Below the pieces are notes generated by a model. That model had not been told where the DNA came from and made no database searches. It saw nothing but the letters and a program-made list of their open reading frames with translations. The position numbers were made by a program, and so were the translations under genes. DNA of 37,062 nucleotides from an uncultured Acidimicrobiales bacterium (GTDB taxonomy: Bacteria; Actinomycetota; Acidimicrobiia; Acidimicrobiales; Poriferisodalaceae): positions 1-37,062 of the forward strand of contig CAYUOD010000001.1 in the NCBI GenBank assembly GCA_964446225.1, read 5' to 3'. Positions 9,861 to 34,103 of this stretch are shown here, piece by piece (within the stretch, counting starts at the first letter, position 1; each line of letters opens with the position of its first letter).

Positions 9861-10699
9861 GATCCTACGGGAAATCTCATGGCGAGTTCCTCGGTGAAGG
9901 CCCCGCGCAGCTGCCGCGCTGCTGCCTTGGACGAGATCAGAAGCTTCTCCCCGGCCCAGTGGGCCGGGAGCAATGCCGGAGGCATCAGCGGATCGATTCC
10001 GATCTGGCCAAACAGAGCCGACATCAGGATCCAGCCCTGGGCGGCATGTGCATTGGGGGCCCCCGAGGTCTGGTGCCTGAAGCTGTCCGCTGTCTCGGTA
10101 AGGCGCGCAGACCGAGCAGAGAACCCATCGAGATCCCAGAGCAATGCGGCCATATAGCGGGGCCGTTCTATCTGGGCAAAGCACGGAAAGTAGGCCTGTG
10201 ATTCGGAGGCGGCCTGCGTCAGCCTGTCCATGCTTCCGAGATTATCTGGCCGCAGCCAAACTCCTGGTCGGAACTCGCCCAAGCGGTCCGCACGAATCAG
10301 TTCTCTCACGTAATCAGGAACCTCTGAACTCTCAAGACCATCGGGAAACGCAACCATGACCCAGGAACCATCCCAAATCGGCGAAGTATGAGCGCGAGCC
10401 CGACGATGCAACTGGTGAGGTTTGGTCGTCCGGCGGCCAGGCACGAGCACTCCCTGTGCGTTGATGGCAATGCTCCCATCGCTCACCGCAGCTTCAATGG
10501 CGACAAGCGTGTCAGCCTTGGTTTCACCGAAAGTCGAGCCCACGCTCATCAACGAATCCCGTGTCAAGGTCGCGTTTGAATAGACGAACGTGGTGAAGAG
10601 TCCGCGCAGAGTGAGCGGACTCAGCACACTTTCCAGGCCGTCGTACAGACGCGGATCCGCCACGCCATCCGGTAGTCCTGGACCCACAAGCTCGACCAT
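9857..10699 (-). CDS. PaaX-family-like transcriptional regulator (first of tandem pair)
   Basis: WDGSWVMVAF, PGVWLRPDNL, LWDLDGFSARS and IDPLMPPALLPAHWAGEK match the PaaX C-terminal domain pattern (W-G-W, GvW-P, dPlLP..LLP..WpG). Confidence 0.65.
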   Translation of the reverse strand: MVELVGPGLPDGVADPRLYDGLESVLSPLTLRGLFTTFVYSNATLTRDSLMSVGSTFGETKADTLVAIEAAVSDGSIAINAQGVLVPGRRTTKPHQLHRRARAHTSPIWDGSWVMVAFPDGLESSEVPDYVRELIRADRLGEFRPGVWLRPDNLGSMDRLTQAASESQAYFPCFAQIERPRYMAALLWDLDGFSARSARLTETADSFRHQTSGAPNAHAAQGWILMSALFGQIGIDPLMPPALLPAHWAGEKLLISSKAAARQLRGAFTEELAMRFPVGS

Positions 10700-14802: not shown

Positions 14803-16065
14803 GTGCGTGTGGAACTGACAGAGACTGATCGATCCATGCTCGCTGGCGAGCACGGCGAAGGTCACAGTCTGGCGATGCGGGTGGTGGCCCGCGTGGCCGA
14901 AGCCATGGGCGCCGAGATGTTGCTGGACGTGTCGGAGGCGCATATTGACTCGTGCCTTGATCACGGTCAGGCAGGTGTGGATTTCGCAGAACGCCTAGCT
15001 CGTGATGGAAGCCAAGTGACCATTCCGACCACGCTCAACGTCTCGTCGCTGGATCTGCTTCATCCAGAGCTGTACCGAGGCTCGCCGAGCCAGGCTGCGC
15101 GCGCCAAACGCCTGATGGACTACTACGAGCAGATGGGCTGCCGCCCCACCTGGACCTGTGCCCCATACCAGTCAGGAGCCCGGCCGGGACTCGGTGAGCA
15201 TGTTGCCTGGGCCGAGTCCAACGCGATCGTGTTCGCCAACTCGGTGCTCGGAGCACGCACACACCGCTACGGCGACTTCATCGACATCTGCGCCGCGGTG
15301 ACTGGTCGAGCTCCGGCGGCCGGGCTGCATCTCGATGAGAACCGTCGGGCTACCGTGCTGATCGATGTCTCCGGGCTTCCGCAGCGCCTTGTTGCCTTGG
15401 ACGTTTTCTATCCTGTGCTCGGCCATTTCCTCGGTGGAGCTGTTGGACAACGGGTGCCTGTGCTCGTAGGGCTCCCCCAAGGCCTCAGCGAAGACCGGCT
15501 CAAAGCAGTGGGCGCGGCAGCTGCATCCTCTGGATCTGTGGGCCTCTTTCACTGCGTGGGGAGCACCCCTGAGGCGCAGACGTTGGAAATTGCTACTGGG
15601 GGACAAGCGGTTCAGGACACGATCACTGTCGACCTGGCAATGGTTCGAGAAGCCCGCGATGCGCTCAGCACCTTTGACGGTACAGAACTGGGCATTGTCA
15701 GTCTCGGGACCCCGCACTATTCGGTGAGCGAGTTCGAAACGCTCATGCAGCTGATAGATGACAGAACAGTGCACTCATCCATTGACATGTACGTCTCAAC
15801 AGGACGCAGCGTGTTGGCCGAGATCCAGCTCCGGGGCTGGGTACGGCGCCTCGAACACTCGGGCATCCAGATCGTCACTGACACGTGTACGTACATAACA
15901 CCGATTATGCGCCCAGCTAGCGGTGCCGCAATGACAGACTCCGGAAAGTGGGCCTACTACGCCCCTGGCAATCTGGGACTCCCTGTCGTGTTCGGTGCAA
16001 CCGCTGATTGCGTCGAGTCGGCGATTGCCGGCCGCGTGGTGCGCGACGAATCGGTGTGGTCCTAA
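14803..16065 (+). CDS. Aconitase X (AcnX) large/catalytic subunit, DUF521 family
   Basis: N-terminus VELTETDRSMLAGEHGEG...AEMLLDVSEAHIDSC and the ~420 aa length fit DUF521/AcnX. Confidence 0.75.
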   Translation: MRVELTETDRSMLAGEHGEGHSLAMRVVARVAEAMGAEMLLDVSEAHIDSCLDHGQAGVDFAERLARDGSQVTIPTTLNVSSLDLLHPELYRGSPSQAARAKRLMDYYEQMGCRPTWTCAPYQSGARPGLGEHVAWAESNAIVFANSVLGARTHRYGDFIDICAAVTGRAPAAGLHLDENRRATVLIDVSGLPQRLVALDVFYPVLGHFLGGAVGQRVPVLVGLPQGLSEDRLKAVGAAAASSGSVGLFHCVGSTPEAQTLEIATGGQAVQDTITVDLAMVREARDALSTFDGTELGIVSLGTPHYSVSEFETLMQLIDDRTVHSSIDMYVSTGRSVLAEIQLRGWVRRLEHSGIQIVTDTCTYITPIMRPASGAAMTDSGKWAYYAPGNLGLPVVFGATADCVESAIAGRVVRDESVWS

Positions 16066-16514
16066 TGGCACAGACGCTCTCGCCCGGTCGAGGCTACGGC
16101 GAGTTGGTAGTCCTCGACGAACCATTGAGTTTCTGGGGCGGATTCGACGCTGACAGCGGACATGTCACAGACCAGCGCCACCCGCAGGTTGGGATGACCC
16201 TCACCGGCAAGGTCCTTGCTATGGAGCAGGGCCGAGGTTCAAGCTCGGGTTCGTCGGTGCTCGCAGAAGCGATCAGGGCCAGAACCGCGCCCTGCGCGAT
16301 CCTGCTGCTGGCGCGGGACGAGATCATCGCGCTCGGCGCGATCGTCGCTGATGAGGTGTACGGCCTCCAAGTACCTGTGGTGCTGATCGATAAGGCTGAC
16401 TGGGATGACCTCAGACCTGGCGAAATGCTGGGTGTGATCGCGCCGGACAGCCGAACCCCGACTCTGTCACGAGACGAGGCGCCCCACCTCACAAAGGACG
16501 AATCATGGACCTGA
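16065..16514 (+). CDS. Aconitase X small (swivel) subunit, DUF126 family
   Basis: LVVLDEPLSFWGGFDADSGHV...HPQVGMTLTGKVLAMEQGRGSSSGSSVLAEAI is the DUF126 pattern. The ATG overlaps the upstream TAA (TAATG). Confidence 0.75.
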   Translation: MAQTLSPGRGYGELVVLDEPLSFWGGFDADSGHVTDQRHPQVGMTLTGKVLAMEQGRGSSSGSSVLAEAIRARTAPCAILLLARDEIIALGAIVADEVYGLQVPVVLIDKADWDDLRPGEMLGVIAPDSRTPTLSRDEAPHLTKDESWT

Positions 16515-17058: not shown

Positions 17059-18096
17059 ATGCGAGCCTTTACACGATTGACCCGACTCGGATCTCTGCTT
17101 GCTGTGATTGGCCTTGTTGCAGGTGCATGCACGGCCACCCAGGCTGAAGCGCAAGGGACCGATGAGCCGGGGTTGTTCTCCGCCAAGTACTTGTCGCTGG
17201 AAGACGGCGAGAGATACACCGTGGTTGACGGCGGCGAGTACGGCCCTGCGCTCGATGCCGACTTCATGCAGCCCGACGATGTTGTACTCGGCCTCGTAGT
17301 AGGCGACACGGCTATCGCGTTTCCGGTTGCCCTCATGGGCTACCACCACATCGCAAACCTGGAGATCTCGGGTGAGCCGTACGTTGTTACCTATTGAATT
17401 GTCTGCTCTTCAGGGGTCGCGTTCGATCCTGTTGTTGACGGCGTCCGCTACACCTTTGATGTAGCGGGGCTCTACAACGGGCTATTTGTCATGGAAGACC
17501 GCGAGACGGGATCAGTTTGGACTCACTTCGATGGCAGGGTACTGACAGGCCCGCTCGCCAACCAAGACATCGAACTGGAACCGGTACCGCTGATCCATAC
17601 GCGTTGGAACGATTGGCTCGATGACTACCCAAACAGCCAGGTGCTGCTCCCGGACGAAAGGTTTACCGACCGCTACTTCCGAATCGAACCGGGCAACGAC
17701 TGGCTCGGGCCTGACTTCGTAAAGACGATCATCGCCACCGATGACCGCCTGGCAAGCAACGAACTCGTACTTGGTATTGATACTGGCGATACGACCACAG
17801 CGATCGTGATCCAGGAGTTCAACAAGGAAGAAGCGGTCAACCTCGAAGTAGGTGGGGTACCAGTGGTCGCGCTTGTTGATCCAGAGTCCCTTCTCGGCAT
17901 TGCCTTCGAGTCCACGGTTGACGGTGAGGTGAGAGACTTCGAGATTTCAGATGGCGTACTCAAGGACGACACGGGAGCGCTCTGGGCCACGGACGGCAGC
18001 GGTGACGACGGCCAGCTGCAGTTCGTCACCAGCTTTGTCACAGAATGGTACGGCTGGAGCGGCTACCACCCAGGCACAGCTATCTATGACAGCTAG
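17059..18096 (+). CDS. DUF3179-family exported lipoprotein, single reading frame interrupted only by TGA at 17395-17397 (Sec candidate or pseudogene)
   Basis: Track ORFs 17059-17397 and 17491-18096 are in the same frame, and 17398-17490 has no stop. The joined translation reads ...IAFPVALMGYHHIANLEISGEPYVVTY[TGA]IVCSSGVAFDPVVDGVRYTFDVAGLYNGLFVMEDRETGSVWTHFDG... This matches the DUF3179 core (..VTYCPLCgs..vFdR.vdG..l.F..sG.ly.s.lvmyDreT.SlW.q). The N-terminus has a lipobox-like LVAGAC. Confidence 0.7.
17411..17431 (+). other. Bulged hairpin 13 nt downstream of the in-frame TGA (possible bacterial SECIS-like element)
   Basis: CAGGG-G-UCG [CGUU] CGA-UCCUG. That is 5 bp (one G-U), a bulged G, 3 bp and a 4-nt loop containing GU, hand-folded from the sequence. 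Chance hairpins are common at this GC content. Confidence 0.25.
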
Positions 18097-19342: not shown

Positions 19343-20134
19343 ATGGAATCAGCTCTGACGTCACGCTTGGCGACGGGCATCACACAGGATCCGCCCGTAC
19401 TCTTCGTGCATGGGGCCTGGCATGGTGCCTGGTGTTGGGATACACACTTCCTGGGGGCGTTCGCGGAAGCGGGCTATGACGCATACGCGTTAGATCTGCG
19501 TGGCCACGACGGCTCCGGCAAGAGCATGCGGCAATTCAGTCTTGCTGACTACCTCGAAGACATTCGGACCGCTGTGTCCGAAATTGGGACAGAACCCATT
19601 CTGGTTGGGCACTCAATGGGTGGATACCTCGTTCAGCGCCATCTCGAAACTCAGCGGGCACCTGCAGCTGTATTGATAGCTTCCATTCCACCCAAAGGTG
19701 CTTTGGGTATCGCCCTTAGACTGTTGCGCTCGCACCCCGTTGCTCTTCTCAAGACGCAACTACAACTGCGCCTCTGGCCGCTGGTCGAGACACCTGAGCT
19801 TGCACGGGATCTGTTCATGCGCGACGACGCCACCGATCTTGATGCTGAGTTGCTGCAAGGCCGTCTCCAGGACGAGTCGTTCCGTGCTTTTCTGGGTCTA
19901 CTCAGTCGCAGGATCAGACAAGCAGAGACAGCAACGCCGACACTGGTGTTGGGCGCGGAGCAGGATCGTGTTGTAACCATCGGCGAAGTTAGAGCCACGG
20001 CTACCCACTTCGGTACCGACGCTGTCATCTTGGCCGAGATGGCACACGATGTGATGCTGGACCCCGACTGGAAGCTCGCCTCCGACGCCATCCTGACCTG
20101 GCTGGGCGAGGTTCTTGAACCCGACGATGAGTGA
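19343..20134 (+). CDS. Alpha/beta hydrolase fold protein
   Basis: VLFVHGAWHGAWCW, nucleophile elbow VGHSMGG and a C-terminal EMAHDVMLD (His). Confidence 0.8.
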   Translation: MESALTSRLATGITQDPPVLFVHGAWHGAWCWDTHFLGAFAEAGYDAYALDLRGHDGSGKSMRQFSLADYLEDIRTAVSEIGTEPILVGHSMGGYLVQRHLETQRAPAAVLIASIPPKGALGIALRLLRSHPVALLKTQLQLRLWPLVETPELARDLFMRDDATDLDAELLQGRLQDESFRAFLGLLSRRIRQAETATPTLVLGAEQDRVVTIGEVRATATHFGTDAVILAEMAHDVMLDPDWKLASDAILTWLGEVLEPDDE

Positions 20135-20708
20135 CCAACACAGAAGGCCTGCATTGATAGAACCACTCGAACCGCCCTTCGAGGATCGCCAGGCCGCCAT
20201 CATGGAGCGCATTGCACCTGGCCAGGAACGACCACTTGGGCTCTTTCGTCTGCTGGCTCACAACCCCGACATGTTCGACGCCTTTCTCGGCTACGGCTCC
20301 TACAACCTGAGCCGGAAGTGCTCCTTGAGTATCCACGACCGTGAACTCGTGATCTTCCGAGCTGCAGGAAGGGCTCATGGTGAGTACGAGTGGGGTATGC
20401 ACGTACTGTTGTTCACTGAAAAGGCCGGCCTCACTGAGGCCCAGGTCAGGTCCTGTGCCACCGGCGGCCCGAAGGACGAGTGCTGGCAGGATCCGCGCGA
20501 CCGAACAATCCTCGCCGCCGTTGATGACCTTCACGATGAAGACCGGGTGTCAACGCCCGTGCTGGGCCAGCTTGAGAGTCTCTTCAGCCCGGCCCAAATC
20601 CTGGACCTTATCCTGATTGCGGGCTGGTACCGGACCCTGTCCAACGTGACAGAATCGCTTCATCTGCCACTGGAGGACACTGCGGCCCGCTTTCCAGAAC
20701 GTCCCTGA
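20127..20708 (+). CDS. Carboxymuconolactone decarboxylase (CMD/AhpD-like) family protein
   Basis: LFRLLAHNPDMFDAF and DRELVIFRAAGRAHGEYEWGMH fit the CMD-family pattern. ATG 20127 overlaps the upstream gene by 8 nt; the track start TTG 20115 is also possible. Confidence 0.7.
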   Translation: MSDQHRRPALIEPLEPPFEDRQAAIMERIAPGQERPLGLFRLLAHNPDMFDAFLGYGSYNLSRKCSLSIHDRELVIFRAAGRAHGEYEWGMHVLLFTEKAGLTEAQVRSCATGGPKDECWQDPRDRTILAAVDDLHDEDRVSTPVLGQLESLFSPAQILDLILIAGWYRTLSNVTESLHLPLEDTAARFPERP

Positions 20709-30269: not shown

Positions 30270-30718
30270 CTAAATCTCGAAAGCGACGATCGCCACGATT
30301 CCGCCAGCTGGGGGATTCGAGCCGAGGCTTCCGAGAAACTCGCGATCTGAGAAGGTGAACACTCCGCCGTCGCTGCCCACCACGAGATACCCGTTTCCAT
30401 AGGGGACCAGTCCATTGATGGGGGAGTTCAGTGCTGTGCCCGTGGGAAGTACACCAGGAATCGATCCTCTGAACTGGGCACCCCCGAATGCGAACACGCC
30501 ACCATCACACGACACCATCCAGTAGCCGTTGCCACTCGGTGCCGGCACAAGTTCGATAATGGGACAGACCAGTTAGCCCGGAGGCAGCACTTGCGGAATG
30601 GAACCCGCGAACTGGGCATCACCACTGACGGTGCGCCAATACCGATCGTTGAGACGCCAACAAGTCCCATAAAAAGGCTCGTCGCGAGCAAGCCGAGTGC
30701 GCTTCGTCTGATCTTCAT
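30270..30718 (-). pseudogene. Decayed third member of the GYW/DGGVFxFG repeat family (signal peptide in one frame, repeats in another, in-frame TAA)
   Basis: The frame ending at 30718 gives the signal peptide MKIRRSALGLLATSLFMGLVGVSTIGIGAP. A different frame reads ...RYWRTVSGDAQFAGSIPQVLPPG-TAA(30573-30575)-LVCPIIELVPAPSGNGYWMVSCDGGVFAFGGAQFRGSIPGVLPTGTALNSPINGLVPYGNGYLVVGSDGGVFTFSDREFLGS... Confidence 0.55.
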
Positions 30719-30833
30719 GTCGCCGATCTGCCCTCAGATACGGGTGAGTACTGCGGGCTCGTACTTTCGCGCCAAGCCAGTGCGCAGCACTTGGGACTTG
30801 TGCCCTCTCTGTCGTGACGCCAAGATTGAAGTT

Positions 30834-33800
30834 GTGACGGGGGACGGAACATCTGACGCGAAGCGCGCCAATACTGAGTCATCCCTGCCCTTCGTCGGGC
30901 GCTCAGAGGAGCTGACAGGGCTGCGTGGCGCAACCGCCGAAGACTCTGCCGTCGTCTATGTGAGTGGGGCTGCTGGTATCGGCAAGACCCGGATCGTGGA
31001 CACTCTTTGTGCCGATGGAGAGCACGAAGTCCTGAGGGGCCGTGCGTGGAGAGGCGCGTACCATATGCCCTATCTCCCATGGACGCAGGTGCTATCAGCT
31101 GCGCGTCAGTATCTCAGCTCGGGGGACCTAGCCCGCTACCGGGACCTTGCGCCACTCATCAGCCGCACGTCGCACCGTGCGCGCTTTGAAGAAAGCGAAT
31201 CCACCCAACATGTACTCGGATTGGCACTCGGCGACTACCTCCGCGAGGTGTCAACGCGCTGTGAAGGCCAGCTGCTACTCGTCTTAGAGGATCTTCACTA
31301 CGCAGACCGTCCGTCGATTGCCCTCGCCGTGACGATCGCCCGACAGCGCCTGCCCATGTCGTTCATTGTCACCTGCCGACCGACCGCTCAAGCCAGGCTG
31401 GAAAGCCGCGAGCTACTCGAGCTTCTGCGGGCAGAGTCTGAGGTCGTCGAGCTTCCCCCGCTCAGCCGTACCGCAATTGCTGAAGTGCTCTCAGAACGTG
31501 ATGTACCCCCAGACCGTCTCAGCGCGGCGGAAAGGGCTACGTCGGGATCACCGCTGCTCCTCGAGCAATGGCTGCGAACCGACCAGAGCGAAAGTGAGTT
31601 CGACTACGGAAACTCCATCGCACTCCAGCTTGTAGAACTCAAGCCTCAGGCCCAGGAAACGCTCAAGCTCGCCGCCCTCGCTGGCGAAACATTCGACCTC
31701 ACAACGATCGCAGAAGCAGCAGGCTTTCCCGTGGTTGATGCGTTGGACTACGTCGAGGAAGCAAAAGTCGCCGGACTGGTGGGTAACCTTGACCGCTCAC
31801 TTGTGCGCTATGAGTTTCATCACCAGAGCGTGCAAGAGGTACTTGAGGAGATGCAGACACCATCCCAGCGCGCACGCGGCCACGCGCGGCTTCTTCAGGT
31901 GCTCCTCGCGAGGCAGGGCTCCGCGGGAGAAGTTGACGTCTCAGTTCTCGCCGCTCATGCCAGCGAGGCCGCAATAGTTGGCGACGCGCAGCTGGCCGCA
32001 GACCTCAACCTGCAAGCGGGACAGGTCGCCCTGGACCGCGCCGCCCCGGAGACAGCTCTCATGAACTTTCAGCGGGCAGTCGACATCGCCGCGGCGGCGG
32101 GCCTGGCGCTCAAGGTCCGGCTCAATGGCGAACTGGGCTTGGCTCGCGCCCACAAAATCTCTGGCTCCGAGCTTGCCAGGCCGGCCCTGCTACGGGTGCT
32201 CGAAGCCTGCGAGAAGGATCCTGATTCGGCCGACGTTGGCATTGAGGCAGCGCTCCTTCTACCAAGCAACGCTGGCGCGCTTGGGCTTGGGGCCGATCGC
32301 GATGTGGTCGTGGTCCACTGGCTCGAGTGGGCGCTTGAAGCGATGAACTCAGAGCCGTCAACGCTACGGGGCCGTTTACTTCTGGAGTTGGGCATCCAGA
32401 GCTATGCCCGCAGCGCCGCGGAAGGCGAAGCACTGGTCGTCGAGGCCGCCGAGATAGCCGAGTCGGTGGATGACTCCGCACTGCTTGTCCAGGCCGTCTG
32501 TCACCGGCACTGGTTCCGCAGATTTCCCGGCGACGCCTCTGCTGTTCTAGAACTCACCGATCAACTCGAGAGCCGGATTCGAGCAACCGACACCCGGGCC
32601 CGGCTATCGCTCGCCGGGCTTCGCTTCGCGACGCTTCTTCGTCTCGGGCGCTTTACCGAGGCTCTTACTGAAGTACACACACTCGAGGTTGAACTCTCTC
32701 CGCTTCCACCGGTTGCGAGCTGGTCCATTGGACGCTGGCGCGCCACGATCCACTATGTCCGAGGCGAGCACCACGAAGCCGAGGCCGCCGCGCTCGGCGC
32801 GTTCAGTCTCGTGGAGCAAACACGATTCGGTGTTGTCGCGTTCGACTATCTGGCGCTGGTGTTGTCGGCAGTCATGCACGCCAGGATGGAGCACGAGCGG
32901 ATTATCGAGCTGACGGCATCCATGGTGAGTTCACCGAGTCCACTGTTGGCGATCCCTGCCAAGGCGGGCGGTGCCACGATTCTCGCCGAGCTGGGGCGAG
33001 ACTCCGAGGCTGCAGAGCTGTTGGCGCAGATTCCAAGAGACGCTCTGTCCTACCGGGATCCCTACGAACTTTCTTGGTTGCCTGGCGCCGCATTTGTCTC
33101 GCAGGCTGCCGTGGCCCTCAAGGACTCTGGTCGCTCGCGGGAAGCGCTCGAAAACCTGGAGGCCTACCGGGAAGAGTGGATCGTCTGGGGATCTGGCTTC
33201 ATGTGCGTCGGCCCGGTTGCGCTCCATCGGGGACAGGCGGCGCTTGTTGCAGGCGACCACAGCGTTGCGGAGCAAGATCTTGGCTTGGCCCGAGATGAGA
33301 TCATTGGCAGCGGAGCCCGACTCTTCGAACCTGCGCTCCTATGCGCCGAGGCCGATCTTGCCCTTGTTTCTGGTGACACTGGGTCTGCAGTTCAAGCACT
33401 GACTCAGGCCTCGACCCTGTGTACCGAGATGGACTTCGGCACAGCCGCGGCCATGTTGGCGGCACGGGCAATTGAAATCTCGGCGCCAGTCAAAGCAGAA
33501 GTCGAACCGAACCTGAAGCTACGGTCGCTTCGACGTGAAGGTTCGATTTGGACCATAGAGTTTGACGGCGAGACTGGACGTGTCGCGCACCTCAAGGGCA
33601 TGACGGTTCTTGAGCTCCTATTGGCAGCTCCCCGGCGCCAGTTCCATGCCTTGGAACTCAGCGCTGTCATTGACAACGTCACAGGTGGAATTGGTGGAGA
33701 GCCTCTGGGAACTCTGCGAGAAGCTTCCGCGCCAATACTGGACGACCAAGCCTACGGCGAGTATCGCAAACGAATCCGTGAACTCCAGGAGGAGATCGAC

Positions 33801-34103
33801 GAGTCAGAATCTTCTCAGCTCGGGACAAACAGCGAGGCTGCCCACCGTGAACTCGATGCGCTCCTTGATGAGCTACAAAGAGCCACAGGAATTGGCGGCA
33901 AGGCGCGGCAGACGGCTAACAACAGCGAACGCGCCCGGGTTCGCATTACCAAGAGCATCCGTACCGCGGTAGCCAGAATCAGCGAGGTAGCTCCCGCGGC
34001 CGGGCATCATCTCACCACCTCGCTGAGCACGGGGGCGTTCTGCGGCTACGATCCCGGTACATCCGGTCCCGAGTGGTCGGTCGTGCATAACCGAGATGCG
34101 TAA
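30834..34103 (+). CDS. Large P-loop STAND/LAL-like ATPase with helical (TPR-like) middle region and a non-LuxR C-terminal module
   Basis: FVGRSEELTGL, then Walker A GAAGIGKT (nt ~30966-30989) and Walker B LLLVLEDLHYAD, followed by a long Ala/Leu-rich helical region. The C-terminus is LRREGSIWTIEFDGETGRVAHLKGMTVLELLLAAPRRQFHALEL...coiled coil...ERARVRITKSIRTAVARI...GAFCGYDP. The start is uncertain (GTG 30834, TTG 30797 or ATG 30717). The track start 30591 overlaps the opposite-strand gene remnant. Confidence 0.75.
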   Translation: MTGDGTSDAKRANTESSLPFVGRSEELTGLRGATAEDSAVVYVSGAAGIGKTRIVDTLCADGEHEVLRGRAWRGAYHMPYLPWTQVLSAARQYLSSGDLARYRDLAPLISRTSHRARFEESESTQHVLGLALGDYLREVSTRCEGQLLLVLEDLHYADRPSIALAVTIARQRLPMSFIVTCRPTAQARLESRELLELLRAESEVVELPPLSRTAIAEVLSERDVPPDRLSAAERATSGSPLLLEQWLRTDQSESEFDYGNSIALQLVELKPQAQETLKLAALAGETFDLTTIAEAAGFPVVDALDYVEEAKVAGLVGNLDRSLVRYEFHHQSVQEVLEEMQTPSQRARGHARLLQVLLARQGSAGEVDVSVLAAHASEAAIVGDAQLAADLNLQAGQVALDRAAPETALMNFQRAVDIAAAAGLALKVRLNGELGLARAHKISGSELARPALLRVLEACEKDPDSADVGIEAALLLPSNAGALGLGADRDVVVVHWLEWALEAMNSEPSTLRGRLLLELGIQSYARSAAEGEALVVEAAEIAESVDDSALLVQAVCHRHWFRRFPGDASAVLELTDQLESRIRATDTRARLSLAGLRFATLLRLGRFTEALTEVHTLEVELSPLPPVASWSIGRWRATIHYVRGEHHEAEAAALGAFSLVEQTRFGVVAFDYLALVLSAVMHARMEHERIIELTASMVSSPSPLLAIPAKAGGATILAELGRDSEAAELLAQIPRDALSYRDPYELSWLPGAAFVSQAAVALKDSGRSREALENLEAYREEWIVWGSGFMCVGPVALHRGQAALVAGDHSVAEQDLGLARDEIIGSGARLFEPALLCAEADLALVSGDTGSAVQALTQASTLCTEMDFGTAAAMLAARAIEISAPVKAEVEPNLKLRSLRREGSIWTIEFDGETGRVAHLKGMTVLELLLAAPRRQFHALELSAVIDNVTGGIGGEPLGTLREASAPILDDQAYGEYRKRIRELQEEIDESESSQLGTNSEAAHRELDALLDELQRATGIGGKARQTANNSERARVRITKSIRTAVARISEVAPAAGHHLTTSLSTGAFCGYDPGTSGPEWSVVHNRDA

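Follow-up and report, generated by a model that had tools for sequence, protein, structure and literature searches.

In this work we looked at a 37,062-nt stretch of DNA (the window), positions 1 to 37,062 of the forward strand of contig CAYUOD010000001.1 (GenBank assembly GCA_964446225.1) from an uncultured Acidimicrobiales bacterium, and mainly at a gene of the DUF3179 family at 17059-18096 which contains one in-frame TGA. The gene lies on the forward strand and is complete, with 345 codons, a TAG terminator and a single selenocysteine (Sec) codon. We consider it very probable that the TGA at 17395-17397, codon 113, is a real Sec codon that is followed by a covariation-supported selenocysteine insertion sequence (SECIS) and belongs to an intact gene under purifying selection. 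In translation the gene opens with a lipoprotein-type signal peptide (MRAFTRLTRLGSLLAVIGLVAGA followed by C; 17059-17130), with the putative lipobox Cys24 at 17128-17130. The pair His96-His97 (17344-17349) lies 16 residues ahead of Sec113, which takes the first position of a U-I-V-C motif, and the partner residue of this motif is Cys116 (17404-17406). The candidate bacterial SECIS hairpin is found at 17413-17430, within the codons for G-V-A-F-D-P.

The DUF3179 gene and its TGA codon

Two open reading frames (ORFs), 17059-17397 and 17491-18096, lie in the same frame and are parted by no stop other than the TGA, whose context is ...GEPYVVTY-TGA-IVCSSGVAFDP. When U is written as C, the product matches Pfam PF11376 (DUF3179) without a break across the TGA (E=2.7e-48, 165.3 bits; the gathering cut-off is 27 bits), and residues 56-340 are aligned with profile positions 7-292 of 292. 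No NCBIfam model matches this protein. The first-pass annotation of the window, made from the letters alone, had described two ORFs in one frame parted by a single TGA, a product of ~345 amino acids and family-like sequence running across the stop, and the translation and the Pfam match bear this out. The region 17059-18096 is one intact 345-residue DUF3179 gene and not two ORFs.

Of the 130 homologues given by a protein search, the best 120 include about 113 with a length of only 200-243 residues, which cover the C-terminal 58-67% of the query. These short homologues begin with M[IV]CSSGVGFDP, one or two codons past the TGA column, and a shared in-frame stop would cut gene calls to exactly this pattern. 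For one of them, P0009, the contigs show a 223-codon upstream DUF3179 ORF that ends in TGA with the annotated ORF directly next in frame (...GEPWLVTY-TGA-VVCSSGVGFDP). The more distant homologues that are full-length (P0097 and P0115-P0120) have Cys in the TGA column, in sequences such as VTYCPLC, VTFCPLC and VITYCILC, so that the TGA does stand at the first Cys of a CxxC motif, as the first-pass annotation had proposed. Sec would thus occupy the first position of a UxxC/T motif inside the DUF3179 domain (U113-I-V-C116); some distant homologues, such as P0117, have Thr in the Cys116 column, in agreement with the published form of the motif.

Among species-representative genomes the gene was found at 80 loci, which belong to Actinomycetota (Acidimicrobiia, Microthrix), Chloroflexota (Anaerolineae, Dehalococcoidia, SAR202), Acidobacteriota and Armatimonadota; with three contigs of P0009 added, codon 113 was mapped at 83 loci. 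The codon is TGA in 71 loci and TGC in six, all of them from Armatimonadota; five partial loci could not be mapped and one locus (L075) is a disrupted paralogue. Apart from the three P0009 contigs, the TGA form is found in 68 scan loci from ~63 genomes of four phyla, with conserved flanks, and the number of loci exceeds that of genomes because five metagenome-assembled genomes (MAGs) carry two Sec-form paralogues. The TGA column thus shows the Sec/Cys pair, and the earlier proposal of a Sec candidate gains a broad comparative basis. In the 73 reconstructed full-length homologues H97 and C116 are present in all and H96 in 72; N100, U/C113, S118 and G119 are likewise invariant or nearly so within the clade, whose motif is U-[IVL]-x-C-S-S-G.

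The five MAGs with two paralogues are all from Chloroflexota (L007/L038, L011/L043, L024/L046, L033/L035 and L037/L051). In each pair the two copies belong to different sub-clades, U-V-V-C-S-S and U-I-[KR]-C-S-S, which indicates that the selenoprotein was duplicated or acquired twice without reverting to Cys. A few other DUF3179 copies are decayed or mis-assembled. L075 (9970-10900) is a second copy on the same Dehalococcoidia contig as L064, with a frameshifted N-terminal part. In L071 a TGA replaces a conserved Trp at 10046 (LE*NGEARAYP, compared with LEWEGEARAYP) and a C-terminal frameshift is found at ~10691, and in L072 (~10607) and L079 (~10523) the frame is lost in the C-terminal third.

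The closest relative of the window gene, L086, comes from an independently assembled Joint Genome Institute (JGI) contig; it shows 84% nucleotide identity and keeps the TGA at codon 113. Between the two genes the ratio of nonsynonymous to synonymous divergence (dN/dS) amounts to 0.12 upstream of the TGA (codons 1-112) and to 0.06 downstream of it (codons 114-345), with a dS of ~0.77 on either side. The differences at codon positions 1, 2 and 3 number 14, 8 and 41 upstream of the TGA and 13, 9 and 82 downstream. This low dN/dS, together with the excess at third positions, indicates that purifying selection has acted on both halves while the TGA was present. A phosphoribosyltransferase gene lies upstream of the DUF3179 gene in both the window and L086, and it is not found there in more distant relatives.

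The hairpin downstream of the TGA

The window hairpin is built of a 5' arm GGGGUCG (17413-17419), a loop CGUU (17420-17423) and a 3' arm CGAUCCU (17424-17430), which give a stem of 7 bp. It starts 15 nt past the UGA, its loop lies 22 nt past it, and in the centroid fold it is extended, with a bulge, to 17411-17431. The predicted free energy is -12.2 kcal/mol for a 46-nt segment and -8.0 kcal/mol for the 38-nt core. With its 7-bp stem, a G at loop position 2 and a loop 22 nt from the UGA the hairpin fits the published model of bacterial SECIS (bSECIS) elements (PMC13188914). A search of the whole window against Rfam at gathering thresholds gave no match, in a database that covers elements of this kind poorly.

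When 68 distinct TGA-form sequences were aligned without gaps, RNAalifold predicted a single helix, with columns 19-25 paired with 30-36, the same helix as in the window. Paired cells amount to 97.9%, and to 70% or less once the 3' partners are slid. Cells that changed on both sides number 31, compared with 9.0 ± 2.3 in shuffled alignments, and none of 500 shuffles reached the observed value. Column pair 24-31 is C-G in 46 sequences and U-A in 20, and column pair 22-33 is G-C in 48, G-U in 12 and A-U in seven. Of 69 sequences, 59 have GGUU or GUUU as their loop.

The stem lies inside the codons for G-V-x-F-D/N-P and, as a result, amino acid changes (D/N and V/I) are accompanied by changes at synonymous sites of the other arm. 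The third position of the Val/Ile codon is C before Asp (GAY) and U before Asn (AAY), giving 47 C-G and 20 U-A pairs with two exceptions, and Ile (AUC) is paired with GAU in seven of eight cases. The codons of the stem are also restricted in comparison with the rest of the same genes: Gly is GGG in 68 of 69 sequences (22.7% elsewhere), Pro is CCY in all 68 (47% elsewhere) and Val is GTY in all 61 (52% elsewhere). At the Cys-form loci the stem Gly is GGC in four of six. It is this comparative evidence, and not the folding energy, which is decisive for the predicted hairpin.

The first-pass annotation had reported both this bulged hairpin (17411-17431, with its loop ~22 nt downstream) and a 9-bp hairpin further on at 17444-17468. 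The former folds as described, and its core is conserved with covariation. The latter, GC-rich and located in the GCGUCCGCUACA...UGUAGCGGGGC region, also folds in the window, and more strongly than the SECIS candidate. We rejected it as a second candidate for the SECIS, as it does not appear in the consensus of the 68 orthologues and its loop is too distant from the UGA; it is probably incidental.

Decoding of the TGA codon

Based on these comparisons, selenocysteine is the most likely reading of the UGA at 17395-17397 in the host. The complex of SelB with Sec-tRNA(Sec) would be recruited by the 7-bp hairpin, which would present a G-containing tetraloop 22 nt downstream of the codon; Sec insertion itself we infer from the sequence.

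Several points weigh against this interpretation and against the functional reading given below. Taken alone, the window hairpin is energetically unremarkable (z = -1.3) and contains two G-U pairs. The stem overlaps a conserved peptide and therefore part of the hairpin conservation is due to protein constraint, and the binomial probabilities for the codon usage, nominally tiny, ignore the shared ancestry of the sequences. We found no selA, selB, selC or selD within the 37-kb window, and no experimental selenium incorporation was found in the literature for any DUF3179 protein. With regard to function, the clustering of neighbour genes over 70 loci gave no conserved partner (the largest cluster is the gene's own antisense shadow), fusions to thioredoxin-fold domains are rare (two of the 120 best homologues and none in a further search), a sequence search of the PDB gave no meaningful match, and a Foldseek search of the PDB with an AlphaFold model of the Cys-form homologue P0118 gave no match at E<=0.001, the best having E = 0.04.

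The Sec machinery was sought in the window and at all 83 loci. ARAGORN reported no tRNA-Sec in any of them, and the window is without any tRNA gene. At L048:5935-6025 (reverse strand), ~4 kb from the DUF3179 gene, ARAGORN gave a 91-nt 'tRNA-???' whose anticodon loop is abnormal; it was rejected as tRNA-Sec since it has no Rfam match at E<=0.01, and it is probably spurious. In tblastn searches with E. coli SelA, SelB and SelD of the window and all loci, neither selA nor selB was found and selD was found at two loci only: L071 (6379-7386, reverse strand; Dehalococcoidia) and L017 (467-1498, forward strand; Anaerolineales). Both show 41-42% identity to E. coli SelD, and each has, in frame, a TGA at the position of E. 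coli Cys17 (HCAG-TGA-AAK and TCAG-TGA-ASK), which points to a Sec-containing SelD. They lie ~3 kb and 8 kb, respectively, from the Sec-form DUF3179 gene, and this adjacency, two cases in ~75 loci, is not clearly above chance. A 2026 preprint reports that each of the 84 complete genomes from the order Actinomarinales (Acidimicrobiia) contains selA, selB, selC and selD together with Sec-SelD. When the window was scanned for further ORF pairs that share a frame and are parted by TGA, none stood out as a second convincing candidate for a selenoprotein.

One alternative to Sec insertion is a read-through that does not involve selenium, in which a near-cognate tRNA (Trp or Cys) suppresses the UGA or the code is reassigned, possibly with stimulation by the hairpin. 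Read-through is known to be promoted by RNA structures in other systems. This explanation would fit a window that holds no Sec machinery, but we regard it as improbable. TGA terminates 10 of the 25 other Pfam-supported ORFs of the window and many of the DUF3179 orthologues themselves, and as an ordinary terminator it rules out a reassignment, which agrees with the earlier claim that the genetic code is unchanged. Furthermore, homologues without the TGA have Cys in this column, the signature of a Sec/Cys pair, the geometry of the hairpin and its G-first loop fit the bSECIS model, relatives with the TGA form also carry Sec-SelD, and Acidimicrobiia with the full selA/B/C/D set are documented.

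Another option is that the gene is a conserved split gene, in which translation truly ends at the TGA and the C-terminal two thirds are made separately, through a restart or an internal start codon. Gene callers do annotate two pieces in most databases, and 23 of 69 sequences offer a GTG, ATG or TTG no more than two codons from the TGA. However, the other 46 have no canonical in-frame start until 12-32 codons downstream (32 in the window), so that the invariant C-S-S-G-V-G-F-D-P segment would be untranslated and yet conserved as protein. A Shine-Dalgarno-like tetramer was found in the 18 nt ahead of the TGA in none of 72 loci. The C-terminal piece would have no signal peptide, the stop is aligned with an essential Cys, and the forced GGG, CCY and GTY codons and the compensatory pairs would be left unexplained. 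Judged on these sequence features, a split gene is unlikely, somewhat more so than read-through.

The null hypothesis of the first-pass annotation, a fresh pseudogene or a sequencing or assembly error in which the protein is cut after 112 residues by a TGA newly mutated from TGC/TGT or by a miscalled base, is the simplest one for a single in-frame stop, and some related loci are truly degraded (extra stops or frameshifts in L071, L072 and L079, and the disrupted L075), but it is refuted by the comparison of the sequences, with TGA in the same column in 71 loci of four phyla, the TGA kept in the independent L086 assembly under dN/dS values of 0.12 and 0.06 at a dS of ~0.77, and downstream differences that pile up at third codon positions.

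The predicted product and its place among selenoproteins

The lipoprotein-type signal at the N-terminus suggests that the product with Sec113 is exported and lipid-anchored. Probably it passes the membrane unfolded through the Sec translocon and is then anchored outside the cytoplasmic membrane. In a check made by regular expression only, the N-terminus in the window reads LVAGA|C24, with Ala at position -3 and not the classical Leu; most reconstructed Sec-form orthologues show an h-region followed by [LA][AG][AG]C, and lipoprotein-type or ordinary signal peptides were found in most orthologues.

By analogy with other UxxC/CxxC proteins and from the DUF3179 fusions to thioredoxin-fold domains, Sec113 and Cys116 would most likely serve an oxidoreductase outside the cytoplasm as its redox-active selenol/thiol pair. 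These fusions are found in the distant homologues P0116 and P0119, which carry Redoxin, AhpC-TSA or thioredoxin domains, and thioredoxin-fold partners may service the Sec113/Cys116 pair. Alternatively, Sec/Cys and the invariant His-His may together bind a soft metal, and His96-His97 could act as ligands or as catalytic residues.

The AlphaFold model of P0118 (pLDDT, the predicted local distance difference test, 89; predicted template modelling score, pTM, 0.87) is mostly beta, with two similar beta-beta-alpha-beta-beta lobes, and the Cys equivalent to Sec sits in a loop after strand 132-139. Residues 101-221 and 262-390 of the model look internally duplicated, each lobe ending in a short helix and a strand, and the Cys/Sec motif is confined to the first lobe. 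The weak top Foldseek matches are consistently Rieske-type domains of ~110 residues. Membership in the Rieske-type [2Fe-2S] proteins was rejected, since no Pfam Rieske model matches at E<=10 and the ligands would be arranged as HH-x15-U/CxxC and not as CxH...CxxH; with no Pfam Rieske signal the resemblance is only a hint at the level of the fold. As a tentative possibility, which we hold to be rather doubtful, the clade may represent a selenoenzyme or seleno-metalloprotein that is lipid-anchored outside the cytoplasm and differs from all characterised selenoproteins in fold and chemistry, having two beta-rich lobes and a site made of the invariant His-His and U-x-x-C.

Elsewhere in the window the gene content is actinobacterial in type (MMPL, TetR, PIG-L, luciferase-like, P450 and AcnX). 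Just upstream of the phosphoribosyltransferase and DUF3179 genes, two forward-strand ORFs in different frames, overlapping by ~58 nt, encode the large subunit (14803-16065) and the swivel-domain small subunit (16008-16514) of Aconitase X. A CMD protein (carboxymuconolactone decarboxylase/AhpD-like) is encoded 2 kb downstream (20115-20708, forward strand); CMD-like proteins are another catalogued selenoprotein family (CxxU), and this copy has no in-frame TGA. An ORF of 1170 residues (30591-34103, forward strand) has an AAA_16 ATPase near its N-terminus as its only Pfam match, which leaves ~900 residues unannotated.

The first-pass annotation knew of no DUF3179 selenoproteins. In fact, the tables of two prokaryotic catalogues list DUF3179 as a selenoprotein family with the motif UxxC/T (PMC9312934, PMC13188914). 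Both catalogues, from Zhang and co-workers, credit this entry to Zhang & Gladyshev 2007 (NAR 35:4952), which uses provisional names such as OS_HP1-3; the examples that they give for the family are MBW1804167.1 and MDJ0986319.1. The NCBI protein MDE0928661.1, from the cluster of P0021 and thus from the clade of the window gene, is named 'DUF3179 domain-containing (seleno)protein, partial [Acidimicrobiales bacterium]'. Selenoproteins are thus already recognised in this family and in the very clade of the window gene, and the novelty is low. The catalogued protein shares with ours the PF11376 domain, one Sec per protein at the first position of U-x-x-C and a bSECIS-type hairpin just downstream. 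In the catalogues the family is no more than a table row, and the original report concerns a deltaproteobacterial worm symbiont, whereas the clade of the window gene is from Actinomycetota, Chloroflexota, Acidobacteriota and Armatimonadota and has the motif U-[IVL]-x-C-S-S-G.

The canonical Cys-form DUF3179 proteins (VTYCPLC; P0118 and at least 7,967 relatives) have the same full-length domain with the reactive residue at the same position and are exported, but they have Cys for Sec and CPLC in place of U[IV]xCSS, show ~30% identity and are called full-length by gene callers. The related Cys forms of Armatimonadota lack the hairpin-forming codons (GGC in four of six). In the UxxC/CxxU oxidoreductase selenoproteins (thioredoxin-like, DsbA-like, Prx-like and AhpD/CMD-like) Sec and Cys are also two residues apart; there, too, Cys homologues are more widespread, thioredoxin-fold fusions are found occasionally and Sec probably arose from a redox-active Cys. 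In contrast to them, the fold predicted for DUF3179 is mostly beta and two-lobed and not thioredoxin-like. Like the SECIS of the E. coli fdhF/fdnG type, the window hairpin is a stem-loop that follows the UGA closely inside the coding sequence, exposes a G where its small apical loop begins and has this loop at a distance that falls in the range of 16-37 nt, but it shows no sequence similarity to them and its short 7-bp stem lies fully inside a conserved hexapeptide.

As the family has already been catalogued as selenoprotein, the finding raises no new question. It does show that the window gene and more than 100 database relatives are routinely mis-annotated and entered either as a pair of ORFs or as a protein cut down to ~235 residues; the correct annotation joins both ORFs, with U at residue 113. 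The locus is also a very clean case of a SECIS embedded in a conserved peptide, in which replacements (D/N and V/I) are compensated synonymously on the opposite arm, and it encodes a selenoprotein that is apparently exported and lipid-anchored. The clade is kept almost exclusively in its Sec form, in lineages that are largely aerobic (Acidimicrobiia, Anaerolineae, SAR202/Dehalococcoidia and Acidobacteriota). If the tentative reading of the clade as an unusual selenoenzyme or seleno-metalloprotein is true, it would represent an undescribed cell-surface function of selenium, in redox chemistry or metal handling, outside the anaerobe-centred picture of bacterial selenoproteins.

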